The position numbers were made by a program, and so were the translations under genes. Positions 27,158-35,053 of a DNA stretch of 64,000 bases are shown piece by piece. The notes beneath the pieces were generated by a model. It made no database searches, was not told the origin of the DNA, and saw only the letters and a program-made list of their open reading frames with translations. Source of the DNA: an uncultured Oleispira sp. (lineage in GTDB: Bacteria > Pseudomonadota > Gammaproteobacteria > Pseudomonadales > Oceanobacteraceae); the NCBI GenBank assembly GCA_913019965.1, contig CAJVZR010000011.1:5847-69846 (forward strand), given 5' to 3'. Positions within the stretch are counted from its first letter, which is position 1. Every line of letters begins with the position of its first letter.

Positions 27158-27970
27158 TTATGGTGTCGTTTCTACTTCAGGAGTTTCTGTATCCGGTGTC
27201 GTTGTTCCTACTGATGAGGTCGGAGCCGTAAACGTCATAAACAATAATGAACTGCCCATCTTGCTATAAATTTCTAACTCACCATCGGCATTAATCGCCG
27301 CAAAGCCAGTAGCATCGCCGTTAAAGTCATCGCAATTACGGCGATTAATGGTTAGAGCCATCAAGGCATCACCGACTGTTAATAATGAAAACTGACCTTC
27401 AAAGGAGCAGTCTTTAGTAGCGCCGTTATTAACCCCATGAAAACGACCGCGACTGGTAATATTTAATTCTAGGTCCGTCGTCGTCCACTTACCTGCTAAG
27501 CTGGTTAACGACGAATTATTAGAGAATGTTCCGTCATTAGTGATAGTTAACGCACCAAATACCCCACCATCGGTTGCAAAATCCCCTACGACGGTTGTAT
27601 TTGTCGCTAATAATCCGTTAATGGTATAGCTCGTCGTATTACCATCAGCGACGAATTCATTATTCGGACTATCTTCGTAAGCGAATGGAAAAGCGGTAAG
27701 AGCAAAATCGACTTCTTCTATTGTGGGGGAGTCTAAGGTGCCAAAAAAGGCTTTGTCCGCATCAAGACCATAGACATTGCCGTTATAAATTAGCATTCGA
27801 AGGGTTTCTGTTTGATCAAAACCCCCATTCCAAAAACCATTCAGCGCTAAAGACGTATCATCAACTTCCACACCTTCACTATTGGTCGGATTAGTATCTT
27901 CCTTTTCTTCAGGCAGGCAGGCAGCCAATAGCAGCAAACTACTGAATAAGAAAAAACGTTGGATATTCAT
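27158..27970 (-). CDS. Hypothetical lipoprotein
   Basis: MNIQRFFLFSSLLLLAA-C lipobox from ATG 27970; beta-rich body; Thr/Pro/Glu-rich C-terminal tail. Confidence 0.75.
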   Translation of the reverse strand: MNIQRFFLFSSLLLLAACLPEEKEDTNPTNSEGVEVDDTSLALNGFWNGGFDQTETLRMLIYNGNVYGLDADKAFFGTLDSPTIEEVDFALTAFPFAYEDSPNNEFVADGNTTSYTINGLLATNTTVVGDFATDGGVFGALTITNDGTFSNNSSLTSLAGKWTTTDLELNITSRGRFHGVNNGATKDCSFEGQFSLLTVGDALMALTINRRNCDDFNGDATGFAAINADGELEIYSKMGSSLLFMTFTAPTSSVGTTTPDTETPEVETTP

Positions 27971-28199
27971 TAGAACATTGGATAAAGCAGCCGACACAGG
28001 AACCTCACAATTACATCTCAGTGATATAACTATAGATGTCGGCTGATGTTTTGCAGGCTTTAGCAATGAGTTATCTGCTAAGCCCGCTGAATGACTAGTA
28101 ATTAAGTCGCAATAAATTGCCTAATGATTGAATGTCTATATTCCTACAATTATTATCCGTTCTTATACATGGAGAGTATCTACATAAAAAGGAATTCTA

Positions 28200-29177
28200 A
28201 TGAGAAATCTATTACTTTGTAATCAGTCATTATCACCAGCCAACCTTGAAAGCCAGTGTGGTATTAATATTGACCAATTATCAGATTTCATGTGTGCAAA
28301 GCCTGCAAGAGTTGCTGCACATACTCCTTATTTTTTAAATAGTGAAATGAACGCAACGGAAAAGAATATTTTAAGCACGCTCTCCCCGCAAACCATATCT
28401 AAAGAATTGACGAGTTTATCGCTTTCTTACGGTGGTGATAATGTTATGGCTCTTTCAGAAATAACTGAAAAGCTTAACGGCTTTGATGTTGATTTAATAG
28501 GCGCCTCAACCAGTGCCTATACCAACCGCATGGGAGGCTTTGTTGGCGCTGTTAAGGATTACCAATCTGCGTTGATGCAGTATAGAGAAGCTATAGCCTC
28601 AAAATCCCCGATGAAAAATATTTTCAAAGAAAAGGTTCATACTGCATTCAATAAAATGCAGATCAAATTTGGTAATGAATTAAAGGTTATTACCAATAAA
28701 AATAAGGCTCGCCGTGGTACACCTCTGACGAATGTAAAAAGAGCTACGAATATTGCTGAAAGTAGTCGTAATACAGTAAAACTGAATGTTACCTCACAGG
28801 TTCAAGCAAATAATCTAGTGAAATTTACTAACCACGCTAAATTTTTGGGAAACGGGCTCGCAGTCATCAATTTTGCTGGTAAAACAGGTAATGTTCATAA
28901 CAGCTATCAGGTTGGCGGACATTGGGAAAAAGAGCTATTTATTGAATCGAGCAGCTTTGCTGCTAGTGCGCTTACTGGGACTGCTGTTGTTAATGCAGGT
29001 GGAGCCGCCTTAATGTTTTTAATGGTAGCTACACCAATTGGATGGGTTGGTTTAATTATCGGAGGTATTGCCGTTGCAGGAACAGCTGCAGTAGCATCAA
29101 TAGGAATGAATAATGCCGTGAAAAATAATAGCGGCGAGTGGTACGACCTTATAATGAAGGGAATAAGTGATTTATGA
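28200..29177 (+). CDS. Hypothetical protein with C-terminal Gly/Ala-rich hydrophobic hairpin; candidate pore-forming toxin
   Basis: 325 aa, basic helical middle region, C-terminal GTAVVNAGGAALMFLMVATPIGWVGLIIGGIAVAGTAAVASIG. No signal peptide seen. The ORF is solid; the function is inference. Confidence 0.55.
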   Translation: MRNLLLCNQSLSPANLESQCGINIDQLSDFMCAKPARVAAHTPYFLNSEMNATEKNILSTLSPQTISKELTSLSLSYGGDNVMALSEITEKLNGFDVDLIGASTSAYTNRMGGFVGAVKDYQSALMQYREAIASKSPMKNIFKEKVHTAFNKMQIKFGNELKVITNKNKARRGTPLTNVKRATNIAESSRNTVKLNVTSQVQANNLVKFTNHAKFLGNGLAVINFAGKTGNVHNSYQVGGHWEKELFIESSSFAASALTGTAVVNAGGAALMFLMVATPIGWVGLIIGGIAVAGTAAVASIGMNNAVKNNSGEWYDLIMKGISDL

Positions 29178-29551
29178 GTTTATTTTCACAATTGCTAGGA
29201 TTTATAGCTATTTTTATGTTCCTTGCGTGCATCTTATATGTTCTTTTTGGCCAAATAACTGTGCGCAAGTTAAGAAAAAATCCAAACACAAAAGATGCGC
29301 TTGGCCTTGAACTCGCTAGCGGTTGGGACATTATAAATGTCGCTCAAGTATTTTCTCTCCCTAGGTCATGGACAAAAAAAATCGAAGATAGTAGGTTTTC
29401 GTTTATGTACGCCAACGCATCTATTTTATATGAAAATACTAATAAATTTGATCATGCTTTAGGATGTATATTCTACTGGCTATTAACGCTTTCAGGGCTA
29501 TCAGGCGCTTTTCTAGTGCTGCTTAATTACCTTGGTATTTTCTCTGAATAA
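29174..29551 (+). CDS. Small two-TM membrane protein; candidate immunity protein
   Basis: Starts within the upstream stop (ATGA overlap, 29174-29177). N- and C-terminal hydrophobic helices flank a soluble loop. AT-rich codons. Confidence 0.55.
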   Translation: MSLFSQLLGFIAIFMFLACILYVLFGQITVRKLRKNPNTKDALGLELASGWDIINVAQVFSLPRSWTKKIEDSRFSFMYANASILYENTNKFDHALGCIFYWLLTLSGLSGAFLVLLNYLGIFSE

Positions 29552-29604
29552 AATTGAATAGACCTCGCCATATTTGTTAGAAATTTACGGCCAAGGTCTA
29601 TTAA

Positions 29605-31032
29605 CTACTTACCAATGCAGAAGCTACCAAAGATATTGCCCAGTAAATCATCGGCAGTAAATTCACCGGTAATTTCACCTAATGCTTGCTGAGCCATACG
29701 TAGATCTTCCGCCAGCAATTCACCCGCCATGGCACCTAATAGCTGATCTTCACCCGCTTGAACCGCCTCTTGGGCTTTTTCTAGAGCTTCGATATGACGA
29801 CGACGAGCTAAGAAACCACCTTCACTGGCAGCATTGAATCCCATCACATCTTTTAAATGTTCACGTAATTCTTCGATACCGAGATTTTGTTTGGCAGAAA
29901 TCGCTAGAGTTGGGAAATCTGCTTCGTCATGTAAGCCTAATTTTGCTGAAACATGATCTTCGGCTAACAAATCCGCTTTATTACGAATAACCGTAATATG
30001 CCCGCTAGCTATCAGCTTTTCAGTTTCTTCTTGCAGACCTTGTTCATCATAAAGGGCGTGTAACAAAGCTCGAGGGTCAGTCTTTTCTCCATCCGTTTCT
30101 AACGAGCTATCAATCATTAATAAGATTCGATCAGCTTGTTCGATTTCAGTCCATGCCCGTTGGATTCCAATGCGTTCAACTTCATCAGGTGCATCACGTA
30201 AACCGGCAGTATCAATGATGTGCAACGGCATACCATCAATATGAATATGTTCTTTTAAAACATCTCGGGTCGTACCGGCGATATCGGTAACAATCGCTCT
30301 ATCTTGCCCCGCTAAGGCGTTTAATAGTGATGACTTACCTGCGTTCGGACGCCCAGCAATCACTACGTTCATACCTTCGCGTAAAATAGCCCCTTGATTC
30401 GCTTCTTGTAGCACACCAGCAACTGAAGCTTTAACTTCTTGTAGCAATGCTGCGACCTTACCATCACCTAAAAAATCTATTTCTTCTTCAGGAAAATCAA
30501 TCGAGGCTTCGACGAACGTTCGCAGATGGATCAGCTGATCCACCAAGCCATGTACTTTATCAGAGAAAACCCCCTGCAGAGATCGCAGTGCACAACGCGC
30601 AGCTTGTGCGGAAGCAGAATCAATTAAGTCAGCTATCGCTTCAGCTTGAGCCAGGTCGAGTTTATCATTTAGAAAGGCACGTTCAGAGAATTCACCAGGT
30701 CGAGCAATGCGAGCACCGAGTTCGACACAGCGCTGTAGAATAAAATCCAGAACCACAGGTCCACCATGGCCTTGCAGTTCTAAAACATCTTCTCCGGTAA
30801 ATGAATGAGGATTAGGAAAATATAGCCCAAGTCCTTCATCCAATACCGTGCCATCAGCATCTTTAAATGGTCCATAGTGGGCGTAGCGTGGCTTTGGTAA
30901 TAAACCTAGCACCGCATGAGCAATATCTTGTGCTTTATCGCCAGAGACCCGCACAATACCGACTCCCCCCCTACCTGGAGCCGTGGCTATCGCCGCAATA
31001 GTATCCTGATGAATAGCTTCTGATGATGTCAT
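29605..31032 (-). CDS. mnmE: tRNA modification GTPase MnmE (TrmE)
   Basis: [50 protein letters not shown]-terminal FGSFCIGK. Confidence 0.99.
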
Positions 31033-31079: not shown

Positions 31080-31880
31080 CTATTGTGAATAATAGCTTTG
31101 GACAATTTTTTGATACCTTTCACTTTGACGTATTCTTGGAATAACTTCCGCAAAGCGTTTGGCTAATGCTTCATGGCCTCTTTTCTTAGAGAAGGCGAGA
31201 AATATATCGTAACTGTCGCTAGCGACATCCATCGAAGTCACTTCTGAAAACTCAGGTAAATGTGCATATTTGTATTTTAAGTGGTCAATATTCACTAAGA
31301 TTAAATCCACTCTTTTATCCAGCAACATCATCAAAAGCTGTTCTTCGGTATTTACATTTATCAAGTTATTCAACTTACTACGATCAAACTTTTTACCGTA
31401 GGAATAGCCACGAATCACACCTATTTTACGATCTTCAACAGACTCTAAACTGCCGTCATAATTAAAATTACGACCTTTTAAATAGGCAAAGCGTGTACTG
31501 CCAATACTAATGGCATTATCCGCTTCATAAATAAGATACTGAGTTCTTTCAGGGGCAAATATCGTATAGCTTATCGCATCAACTTCGCCATTTTCTATGG
31601 TTTTCAGTGCTCGCTTCCAAGGCATGGAAACATACTGAACCCTAATCCCAAGTTCAGCAGCGGCTAACTCAATCAAATCAATATGAAAACCCGTTGGCTT
31701 ACCATCTTTTCCGATAAACTCATTAGGCCCCCAATCATCAATACTACGCACAATCGTAATTGCTTCTGTCACTGCGATATCTTCAGCAAAGCTCAGTTCT
31801 ATCATCAACACTATTGAGGTAATAATAAGAGCCGGAAATAAATACAACAGTGATTGCTTACCCAATACCATGCCTTTCAC
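31080..31880 (-). CDS. Periplasmic substrate-binding protein, family 3 (polar amino-acid type), orphan
   Basis: N-terminal hydrophobic leader, WGPNEF...GFHIDLI, MPWKRAL, KIGVIRGYSYG, LLDKRVDLIL. No permease or ATPase gene adjacent. Confidence 0.8.
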   Translation of the reverse strand: MKGMVLGKQSLLYLFPALIITSIVLMIELSFAEDIAVTEAITIVRSIDDWGPNEFIGKDGKPTGFHIDLIELAAAELGIRVQYVSMPWKRALKTIENGEVDAISYTIFAPERTQYLIYEADNAISIGSTRFAYLKGRNFNYDGSLESVEDRKIGVIRGYSYGKKFDRSKLNNLINVNTEEQLLMMLLDKRVDLILVNIDHLKYKYAHLPEFSEVTSMDVASDSYDIFLAFSKKRGHEALAKRFAEVIPRIRQSERYQKIVQSYYSQ

Positions 31881-34373: not shown

Positions 34374-34508
34374 TTAAGCTGATAAGCTTGCGCGGCCTTT
34401 AGCACGACGTGCAGATAAAATCTGACGACCGCTTTTAGTAGCCATACGAGCACGGAAACCGTGGTTACGCTTACGCTTTAATACGCTTGGTTGAAAAGTA
34501 CGTTTCAT
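34374..34508 (-). CDS. rpmH: 50S ribosomal protein L34
   Basis: Read by hand: [44 protein letters not shown], 44 aa. Below the ORF-track length cutoff. Confidence 0.98.
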
Positions 34509-35053
34509 AGCAATTACTCATCTAATTCACACAAAGTGTAAATTTAGGTTTAAAAATTTAGGGGCGAGATTGTATTGAAATTATGATCATGACGCAATGG
34601 TAAATCTGTATTTATTTTAATCATCTTTTTCAAATTAACTTTTTCTTAACTAACTTCTTTTAAAGATTTATTAATTAAAGTTTATGTTTTTATGTATGTA
34701 AGTAATGTTTTATTTATTCTTACTACTAATATTACGCAAGCCATTTTCTGTTGATAACCATAAAAAAACCAATTAAAACAAAGGGTTACAAGATATATAA
34801 GTCATGTTTAATATGCGTTTAACCTGAGTATTAGCCTAGGGACAATCGGTGTATAAGTCGCGAGTTTTACACAGCCCTGTTTTAGCGTTGTTGTTTATAC
34901 ACAATCCATTTTCACCTTTAACTCGGTTATCCACATATCTATTGAACCTTTTTATGGGCGCTAGAGTAGTTATTTGTGGATAACTTTGCTGTTTTTGAGG
35001 TAGAATGGCCCCCTATTTACATCGATTTATCTTTATTAAAGGAATGCTGTTAG
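34509..35053. other. Chromosomal replication origin oriC (rpmH-dnaA intergenic)
   Basis: DnaA boxes at 34865 (TTTTACACA), 34895 (TTATACACA), 34927 (TTATCCACA) and 34975 (TGTGGATAA). One-mismatch boxes at 34749 and 34848. Very AT-rich tract at about 34590-34740 (candidate DUE). Confidence 0.88.

Follow-up and report, generated by a model that had tools for sequence, protein, structure and literature searches.

What is an AT-rich pair of genes doing just past the end of mnmE, on the strand opposite to all of its neighbours? The question arises in a 64,000-nucleotide stretch of DNA (contig CAJVZR010000011.1; here, the window) from an uncultured Oleispira sp. The first open reading frame (ORF) of the pair, gene 1 (28200..29177, + strand), encodes a 325-aa putative pore-forming effector of a type VI secretion system (T6SS), as judged from the ORF, its ~325-aa relatives, and profile links to the colicin channel and to the family of the Vibrio effector Va03175. 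Gene 2 (29174..29551, + strand) encodes a 125-aa putative inner-membrane immunity protein, an assignment drawn from its ORF, alignment, pairing, and hydropathy. An original prediction, made from the letters of the DNA, had proposed an undescribed antibacterial effector and immunity pair at this site. Our comparisons of protein families, gene order, and genomes indicate that the pair probably consists of an orphan, colicin-like T6SS pore former and its immunity protein of the inner membrane, gained recently as a bare cassette. The kind is already known and a distant relative has been experimentally validated; the family, its N-terminal domain (N-domain), and its immunity family are unannotated. 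For these reasons we regard the gene 1 family as a new branch of a known class of weapon.

The locus was described through a list of ORFs with translations, hydropathy and composition counts, consensus scans for promoters and terminators, and blastn and tblastn searches against congeners. The stop of gene 1 and the start of gene 2 overlap as ATGA (...GAT TTA TGA / ATG AGT, read at 29170-29183), and a putative AAGGA ribosome-binding site lies 8 nt ahead of the gene 1 ATG. GC content over the pair is 0.36-0.41 as compared to about 0.42-0.50 in mnmG and mnmE. All neighbours (rsmG, an acetyltransferase gene, mnmG, a 302-aa lipoprotein-like ORF, mnmE, an SBP_bac_3 gene, and yidC) lie on the minus strand. 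The ORFs, the GC content, and the neighbour strands thus bear out the predicted AT-rich, opposite-strand, two-gene unit with its ATGA overlap.

Gene 1 architecture and similarity to colicin channel domains

By hydropathy, gene 1 has no N-terminal hydrophobic signal or signal peptide. Its N-domain (aa 1-95; 28200..28484, + strand) is an acidic, small alpha/beta and helical unit, delimited by the AlphaFold2 (AF2) model (predicted local distance difference test, pLDDT, of 84-95) and by alignment A8, in which the pattern MxEILLC...CGI...TPY...LSLSxGxDN is conserved; residues 1-100 hold 6 K+R and 11 D+E. The amphipathic helical region that follows (aa 100-240; 28497..28919, + strand) is strongly basic, with 21 K+R versus 5 D+E. 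It is defined by composition, by AF2 helices at 106-133, 139-166, 179-187, and 200-212, and by alignment with the Va03175 family, and is presumed to be the membrane-docking half of a channel domain. Next comes a 57-residue Gly/Ala-rich hydrophobic stretch (aa 252-308; 28953..29123, + strand), then a short polar helix or tail. Hydropathy and a near-invariant ATPxGW turn, with T278, P279, G281, and W282 conserved across the family alignment, mark this stretch as a helical hairpin, presumably both the membrane-inserting element and the determinant of immunity specificity. Composition and hydropathy therefore agree with the order originally proposed, basic helices and then a Gly/Ala-rich hairpin in a protein lacking a signal peptide. 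The AF2 model reached a pLDDT of 50.5 with 23 close homologues and 69.8 overall with 91 diverse sequences.

Relatives of gene 1, counted at E ≤ 1e-3 in a protein database clustered at 90 % identity, make up 526 clusters at 90 % identity, nearly all of them 320-335 aa long and 55-79 % identical over their full length. Two profiles of the family were used, an earlier one of 23 sequences and one of 91 (A2). The former gave only a marginal match to colicin B among PDB sequences. In an hmmsearch of PDB sequences with A2, colicin B (E 0.0014) and colicin A (E 0.027) were matched, and colicin S4 and pyocin S5 more weakly. A2 was then compared by hhalign with an alignment of five pore domains (the last 205 residues of colicins B, Y, and N and of two plasmid colicin-like genes), giving Prob 92.7 % and E 4.3e-7 over 105 columns. 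Gene 1 residues 197-305 (28788..29114, + strand) pair with pore-domain positions 86-198, or about helices 5-9 of the colicin A/B/N/Y channel domain, and the motif GGHWEKELFIESS (aa 239-251) matches colicin TGNWGPLMLEVES. Because gene 1 and the colicins both have the polar motif GxW...(L/F).E.ES aligned in front of the hydrophobic hairpin, the match extends beyond hydrophobic composition. The gathering threshold of PF01024 was not reached: the window protein has no match to this Pfam family, and one of the 91 members has a sub-threshold match (E 0.022). Gene 1 has no Pfam family at E ≤ 1, and Pfam scans of the 91 members found no common family.

Colicins A/B/N/Y/S4 and pyocin S5 (PF01024) share with gene 1 a C-terminal hairpin placed after the GxW...E.ES motif and basic amphipathic helices and before a short last helix, and colicins likewise have an inner-membrane immunity partner. 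Unlike colicins, gene 1 comes without translocation and receptor domains, a lysis gene, or a plasmid; gene 2 is co-directional, unrelated in sequence, and shorter (125 aa versus about 175 aa); and the presumed route of delivery is the T6SS in place of Ton/Tol import. A classical colicin operon was set aside because the N-terminal part is a 95-aa folded domain only, there is no conserved third gene, and the immunity protein is unrelated.

A profile of the N-domain, searched over 36 carrier genomes, matched only gene 1-type ORFs of 320-400 aa or fragments thereof. MIX, FIX, and RIX are modular marker domains common to different toxins. Since the N-domain occurs only on gene 1-type proteins in these genomes, and never on other toxins, it is not a modular marker of that sort, and the suggestion that it might be a new trafficking domain finds no support. 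It may have a role in T6SS loading.

PADLOC returned weak matches to LeoBC, a protein of the Eleos defence system, for gene 1 (28200-29177, E 0.005) and for a paralog in the same genome (L082:1450-2496, E 0.0013), both at 14-16 bits. The two cover the same part of the LeoBC model and probably reflect shared helical and membrane-hairpin composition.

Relationship to the validated effector Va03175

Va03175 of Vibrio alginolyticus 12G01 is an antibacterial effector secreted by VaT6SS2 and described as 'LysM, pore-forming (colicin-like by HHpred)'; it is encoded outside the T6SS cluster and flanked by redundant immunity proteins, Va03170 and Va03180, which are 65 % identical (Salomon et al. 2015, PMC4549250). 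A search of Vibrionaceae genomes with A2 led to a locus (L117) with a 332-aa ORF that has a partial LysM match and a frameshift at its start. This ORF is flanked by transmembrane (TM) proteins of 126 and 128 aa, which are 62 % identical to each other. The hhalign comparison of A2 with the L117 protein gave Prob 95.3 % and E 2.4e-8 over 206 columns. With a four-member alignment of the Va03175 family (A10), which includes three intact relatives, it gave Prob 95.3 % and E 2.1e-8 over 263 columns and spanned gene 1 residues 23-322. Given alignments of 206-263 columns at Prob 95.3 %, gene 1 is a remote homologue of the Va03175 family over the whole toxin region. The label 'undescribed' therefore survives only in part. 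No Pfam or NCBIfam model exists for the family, its database entries read 'hypothetical protein', and no paper was found that cites gene 1-family accessions; what does not survive is the implied isolation, as the homology to Va03175 runs over about 260 columns.

Like gene 1, Va03175 is a stand-alone protein of ~330 aa with no signal peptide, a small N-domain, a basic helical region, and a colicin-like hairpin. Both genes lie at a distance from the T6SS cluster, with a TM immunity gene of about 125-130 aa after them, and gene 2 and the L117 immunity protein are alike in size and in their two-to-three-TM layout. The motifs IARS.., E(I/L)F(V/I)ES, (T/N)P(I/V)GW, and (F/W)Y(D/N) are shared. The two differ in that they are only about 17-19 % identical, the gene 1 N-domain is not recognisable as LysM, and the immunity proteins are dissimilar; Va03175 is experimentally validated, whereas the members of the gene 1 family are predicted effectors.

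We considered whether the N-domain is itself a LysM domain and rejected this, as Pfam searches of 48 N-domains and hhalign of the N-domain alone were negative. LysM (PF01476) was found in neither the window protein nor the 48 N-domains at E ≤ 10, and the N-domain profile scored only Prob 0.05 % against A10 in hhalign. One family member has a weak LysM3_LYK4_5 match (E 0.082). The N-domain occupies the LysM position, the full-length alignment extends collinearly into the second half of LysM, and the AF2 model has a beta-alpha-alpha-beta order of elements, which is a resemblance to LysM and not proof. The metagenome-assembled genome Ca. Polarisedimenticolaceae D96SM.bin.49 holds pairs of the two types, one of the gene 1 type and one an intact LysM-toxin pair of the Va03175 type (L126, L007). 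As one genome carries both, the two branches coexist and are not simple replacements of one another.

Gene 2 as a probable immunity gene

Hydropathy shows two strong hydrophobic segments in gene 2 (1-31 and 94-125), as expected of the 125-aa two-TM protein originally described, and also a weak third (42-60). A conserved basic loop, RKLRKNPKTKD, and an SGWDIINVAQ motif are seen in alignment A3, and nearly all of its 502 relatives are 124-128 aa long. A search for related genome loci with the single sequence found none; the profile search gave 80. A gene 2 homologue directly follows gene 1 in 77 of these, and two of the three exceptions are at contig ends. The small partner, whose absence from homologues had been named beforehand as speaking against the idea, is thus a regular companion. 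Both proteins have more than 500 database relatives and adjoin in 77/80 loci, so the two-gene unit goes beyond chance.

At least eight loci also contain C-terminal pieces of gene 1 as orphans, each with an extra gene 2 copy behind it. On gene 1 numbering these fragments start at aa 208 (L007), 248 (L020), 236 (L029), 230 (L040), 149 (L045), 165 (L060), and 224 and 241 (both L066). Since most start only a little upstream of the GGHWEKELFIESS motif and the hairpin, they suggest that the hairpin carries immunity specificity. The window locus holds a single pair; orphan modules were seen at L007, L020, L029, L040, L045, L060, L066, and L063. Gene 2 copies elsewhere occur in runs of two to five (five in L063, three in L061), and the paralog subfamilies L108-L111 have arrays of their own immunity genes. 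Spare immunity arrays and orphan toxin tips are hallmarks of interbacterial toxins, and the combination of gene pairing, orphan tips, and immunity arrays found here is the pattern of a polymorphic interbacterial toxin.

This pattern bears on a different account, in which the pair is an intracellular toxin-antitoxin or abortive infection system whose pore former is released on phage attack or stress and depolarises its own producer. The overlapping two-gene layout, the weak LeoBC matches of gene 1 and its paralog, and the placement of several pairs in variable regions with NERD, AAA_15, ParE, and S24-peptidase genes would suit such a system. We nonetheless consider it very unlikely. The spare immunity arrays and orphan tips point to interbacterial toxins, the LeoBC scores amount to 14-16 bits over helical and hydrophobic segments, and a defence module would leave the T6SS co-occurrence and embedding described below unexplained. 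Pore-forming colicins, moreover, insert solely from the periplasmic side of the membrane and do no harm in the cytosol (PMC11630599).

Linkage to type VI secretion

The sheath gene tssC (PF05943) served as the marker for a T6SS, and high-quality genomes of the window's order as the background. We found tssC in 36 of 40 carrier genomes, as compared to 82/297 genomes of the order. Within a 301-genome sample of the order, 15 of the 16 carriers (13 genera) had tssC versus 69/285 non-carriers (Fisher p = 2.3e-8, uncorrected for phylogeny). Two family loci, in genomes distant from each other, are embedded in T6SS clusters. A Marinobacteraceae isolate (L038) has the order tssA-tssB-tssC-tssC-[gene 1-gene 2]-tagJ-tssE-tssF-tssG-clpV, and in a Desulfuromonas locus (L065) 100 bp separate a fused tssG-tssF from the gene 1 homologue downstream of it. 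The host genome itself, for which a T6SS search had been proposed, contains T6SS genes: contig C55 carries tssB, tssC, and clpV, contig C75 carries tssC, hcp, and tssF, and contig C102 carries a VgrG-like gene.

Neighbouring genes were less informative. In 142 neighbour proteins of 31 loci, no T6SS family was found among the 25 commonest, of which the rarest had two members, and tblastn of the L038 T6SS proteins over the loci found T6SS genes only at L038 and L065. Clustering of 969 neighbour ORFs with Pfam annotation for a conserved third gene (VgrG, PAAR, Hcp, adaptor, lysis, or CdiB) gave only generic families, so the suggested neighbourhood check for PAAR, VgrG, or adaptor genes turned up none that is conserved. 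The Desulfuromonas locus also has, 1.8 kb downstream of its gene 1 homologue, a Tse2-like ADP-ribosyltransferase toxin gene (L065:10730-11104; PF18648, E 2e-12).

The homology to colicin channel domains also fits a miniature colicin, that is, a bacteriocin released by lysis or leakage independently of a T6SS and entering through a receptor and Ton/Tol, with gene 2 as its immunity protein. In its favour, the extreme N-terminus MxEILLC is loosely TonB-box-like in our own reading of alignments A1 and A8, and TonB-dependent receptors are among the neighbours in eight loci. There is, however, no lysis gene, and a 95-aa folded N-domain is too small for translocation and receptor domains. TonB receptors are common in these genomes anyway. 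Gene 2 is co-directional and overlapping, in contrast to the convergent immunity genes beside colicins B, Y, N, and S4 and a Klebsiella relative, and the strong T6SS co-occurrence and the two loci embedded in T6SS clusters argue against T6SS-independent release. The TonB-box reading was dropped, as in the AF2 model the segment is a strand of the folded domain and the T6SS evidence is stronger. We judge a bacteriocin of this kind improbable, to the same degree as an intracellular defence system.

The T6SS data also raise the question of whether the cassette is kept mainly for immunity, protecting its bearer from a neighbour's toxin while its own gene 1 goes unused or cannot be loaded. Carriers that lack tssC would fit, as would the frameshifted or truncated toxin genes found beside intact immunity genes (L050, L053, L066, L070, L111, and L117). 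Contig C55 ends inside tssC, which leaves the tandem-tssC type of the host unreadable. Yet the window copy of gene 1 is full length and intact, another copy in the database matches it at 98 % identity, and the host has T6SS genes. This explanation appears marginally less likely still than a bacteriocin.

An injected effector with its immunity protein is the reading that we prefer. As originally proposed, a colicin-related pore-forming toxin with membrane immunity, with the T6SS as its likely route, is supported by the profile homology, the pairing and orphan tips, and the linkage to tssC. A number of observations weigh against it. The gene 1 family is known from sequences alone, and single-sequence searches of Pfam, NCBIfam, and PDB sequences with gene 1 and gene 2 gave no match. 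The colicin alignment covers only the C-terminal half of the colicin domain. In the AF2 model from 91 sequences, pLDDT is 84-95 for residues 1-90 and falls below 50 over aa 226-308, a span that includes the hairpin, and a Foldseek search of this model, with its poorly modelled hairpin, against the PDB returned nothing at E ≤ 0.001; the colicin fold, a ten-helix globular bundle around a buried hydrophobic hairpin, thus lacks structural confirmation. L117 was identified as the Va03175 locus by the published description (PMC4549250) and not by accession, and the A10 profile, shallow at four sequences, did not match the colicins. The gene 2 profile matched neither the immunity proteins Cbi/Cui/Cni/Csi (Prob 0.2 %) nor that of L117, of the Va03170/Va03180 type (Prob 0.24 %). 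Finally, the co-occurrence counts ignore kinship between genomes, 4 of the 40 carriers have no tssC, and in 78 of the 80 loci the flanking DNA that was retrieved (up to 8 kb on each side) contains no T6SS genes.

Of 36 T6SS-positive carriers, 32 had two tandem tssC-like genes ~1.6 kb apart, and so did each of the four Vibrionaceae carriers that were checked, as counted from the match tables of carrier genomes G031-G069, G456, G486, G494, and G510. Among the matches listed, this arrangement was less frequent in T6SS-positive non-carriers of the order. The effector superfamily may be tied to one T6SS lineage.

Comparison with other T6SS effectors

Several described effectors resemble the window pair in organisation. 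VasX (V. cholerae) and TpeX (P. aeruginosa PA5265) share a colicin-like C-terminal module, T6SS delivery, and downstream membrane immunity. They are roughly 1000 aa long and linked to vgrG or an adaptor, whereas gene 1 is 325 aa, stand-alone, and has no adaptor or vgrG neighbour. TpeX has been described as structurally similar to VasX. Neither these two nor the families of a survey of specialised effectors (PMC11148199) are the same family as gene 1.

Ssp4 of Serratia marcescens, with its partner Sip4, is a 331-aa T6SS cation-selective pore former (Reglinski et al. 2025, PMC12669606). Similar to gene 1, it has an N-domain of ~110 aa and a C-terminal membrane-inserting helical region, and it lies in a small insertion within a housekeeping gene cluster, ahead of the gene for a small membrane immunity protein. 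Ssp4 genes are usually far from T6SS genes and sometimes beside them, and include a 'marine' subgroup (PMC12669606). Sip4 differs from gene 2 in having four TM helices. Membership of gene 1 in the Ssp4 family was rejected because A0A081NHI0, A0A1H4ENT9, and R9PQL2, all of the gene 1 superfamily, are absent from the published list of Ssp4 homologues detected with HMMER (Dataset EV2), a separation made by the list only. Five of the six carrier genera searched are likewise absent from it; Thalassomonas is present, and Alkalimonas amylolytica is listed under a different protein.

The Tme/Tmi pairs of Vibrio parahaemolyticus T6SS1 are membrane-disrupting (Fridman et al. 2020, PMC7046647). Tme, like gene 1, is an orphan T6SS cargo effector (~310 aa) with a C-terminal TM toxic domain and a downstream TM immunity gene, and is enriched in T6SS-positive genomes. 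It was set apart by motif, as the invariant DxxK ahead of the Tme TM helix is not among the near-invariant columns of A2. Tmi is DUF1240-like, whereas gene 2 has no Pfam match.

Distribution and paralogous subfamilies

A profile search of the whole library placed the gene 1 family in 423 clusters at 50 % identity. The best 150 of the 423 listed included no PAAR, VgrG, or Rhs fusion, all being at most 375 aa except one of 459 aa. Relatives are spread over many marine Gammaproteobacteria and some Desulfobacterota; the genera include Endozoicomonas, Simiduia, Neptunomonas, Colwellia, Marinobacter, Microbulbifer, Thalassomonas, Psychromonas, and Methylobacter. The spread is patchy, with gene 1 in 16/301 genomes of the window's order and up to 4-7 gene 1-type copies in some genomes.

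The window genome (G000) has a second pair on contig C34 (18650-20058; L082:1085-2496, minus strand). Its 348-aa toxin shares 30 % identity with gene 1, and the partner, a 117-aa protein with three TM segments, has no sequence relationship to gene 2. This C34-type subfamily, and not the window version, was found in 5 of 14 congeners, sometimes with orphan tips. In a third subfamily (L109:1178-3983), a 323-aa toxin is followed by four immunity-like genes of 129-162 aa (motif LRLTLDRRVRKALP...CPLDWYGGF), the last of which starts with a fused remnant of a toxin tip.

A broader and rather doubtful proposal is that the gene 1 family, at least two paralogous subfamilies with their own immunity families, and the Va03175 group make up one large, unnamed superfamily of stand-alone T6SS cargo, which would belong to the tandem-tssC lineage and diversify by 're-tipping'. 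The N-terminal head, under this proposal, would be LysM-derived, with a LysM sequence that is no longer recognisable, and would act in loading or targeting. Recombination with stored orphan hairpin-plus-immunity cassettes, just upstream of the GxW motif, would give the constant channel domain a new tip and so alter immunity specificity.

Insertion of the pair beside mnmE

DNA homology to congeners (blastn and tblastn) stops at 28063 and restarts at 29606, and in the congener locus L099 the flanks abut at 2099/2101. These breaks, together with low GC, define an inserted segment of ~1.54 kb (28064..29605) that holds two genes only. Six congeners show the empty site, in which mnmE is followed directly by the lipoprotein-like ORF. 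A close version of gene 1 was found in none of the 14 congeners searched, five of which carry only the distant paralog. The pair was acquired recently by horizontal transfer as a bare 1.54-kb cassette.

The insertion point is just past the mnmE stop codon, so the predicted position at the 3' end of this gene is confirmed by the homology breaks and the abutting flanks. The further idea of an SGI1-type hotspot at trmE/mnmE fails, and the insert is no island of that type. The 1.54-kb insert of two genes contains no integrase or transposase, and its ends show no meaningful flanking direct repeat, target-site duplication, or att site, so the tyrosine integrase and att repeats of such an island are missing. 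An approximate resemblance between the two borders ('aggctttag / aggtctattaa') was too weak and was set aside. Because family members sit at many unrelated sites, the mnmE site of the window copy is incidental.

A clean insertion with an empty site also bears on whether the two genes might be a non-toxic membrane-protein pair with a housekeeping or structural role. Conservation is high for a conflict gene, at 55-79 % identity across many genera with a fixed length of 325 aa, and would agree with such a role. The patchy spread (16/301 genomes of the order and no congener with the close version), the empty site, the multiple copies in some genomes, the orphan fragments, and the homology to toxins all speak against it, and we consider it the least probable of the explanations discussed, by far short of likely.

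Flanking genes and other features

The pair is flanked on one side by mnmE (29605..31032, - strand) and on the other by the 302-aa lipoprotein-like ORF (27158..28066, - strand), which lies between mnmG and mnmE. A promoter-like site 5' of gene 1 (TTGAAT-17-TATTAT; 28128..28156, + strand) came from the consensus scan, whose matches number no more than chance, and is weak. Direct reading of the sequence revealed a perfect 9-bp inverted repeat, AATAGACCT / AGGTCTATT, with a 28-nt spacer (29557..29602), at the insert's right edge in the gap separating the stop codons of gene 2 and mnmE. It was missed by the terminator scan and is possibly a shared terminator or a recombination scar.

The lipoprotein-like ORF is 50-78 % identical among congeners (89 % over one 18-residue stretch), as compared to 91-97 % for mnmE and mnmG, and this lower identity indicates fast evolution. 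Its listed TTG start is probably an artefact; M33 is the likelier start and is followed by the lipobox FSSLLLLAAC. The DNA upstream of this ORF is conserved at 27970-28063. Wedged between mnmE and yidC is the SBP_bac_3 gene (31080-31880, - strand; E 1.6e-18), which encodes a solute-binding protein, with a GC content of 0.34-0.40, which may be a second small insertion in an otherwise conserved origin-proximal block. Just past rnpA, GC drops to 0.29 at 34400-35000 and the GC skew changes sign nearby; this is probably the rpmH/dnaA-oriC region.

Proposed mechanism and significance

We infer the toxicity of gene 1, its side of action, its loading mechanism, and the mode of immunity. In the model that we favour, the module would have arrived by horizontal transfer between mnmE and the lipoprotein gene. 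Gene 1, lacking a signal peptide, would be synthesised in the cytoplasm, mounted on the spike or tube of the T6SS, possibly via its N-domain, and injected into a Gram-negative neighbour, where it would reach the periplasm. The basic amphipathic helices would then dock on the anionic inner membrane and the hairpin (aa 252-308) would insert, forming a voltage-dependent ion channel that, by homology to colicins, may dissipate the membrane potential. Gene 2, translationally coupled to gene 1, would sit in the inner membrane of the producer and, in the manner of colicin immunity proteins, neutralise toxin arriving from sister cells through contacts between its helices and those of the hairpin.

Only a few pore-forming effectors of T6SSs are known to date, and understanding of them is poor. 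The links to colicins and Va03175 give an evidence-based name to hundreds of genes missed by current annotation, and gene 1 offers a compact, 325-aa model for a colicin-type channel putatively adapted to contact-dependent injection. With its frequent orphan-tip and immunity arrays, the family would be a good system in which to study how immunity specificity may be encoded in a transmembrane hairpin.

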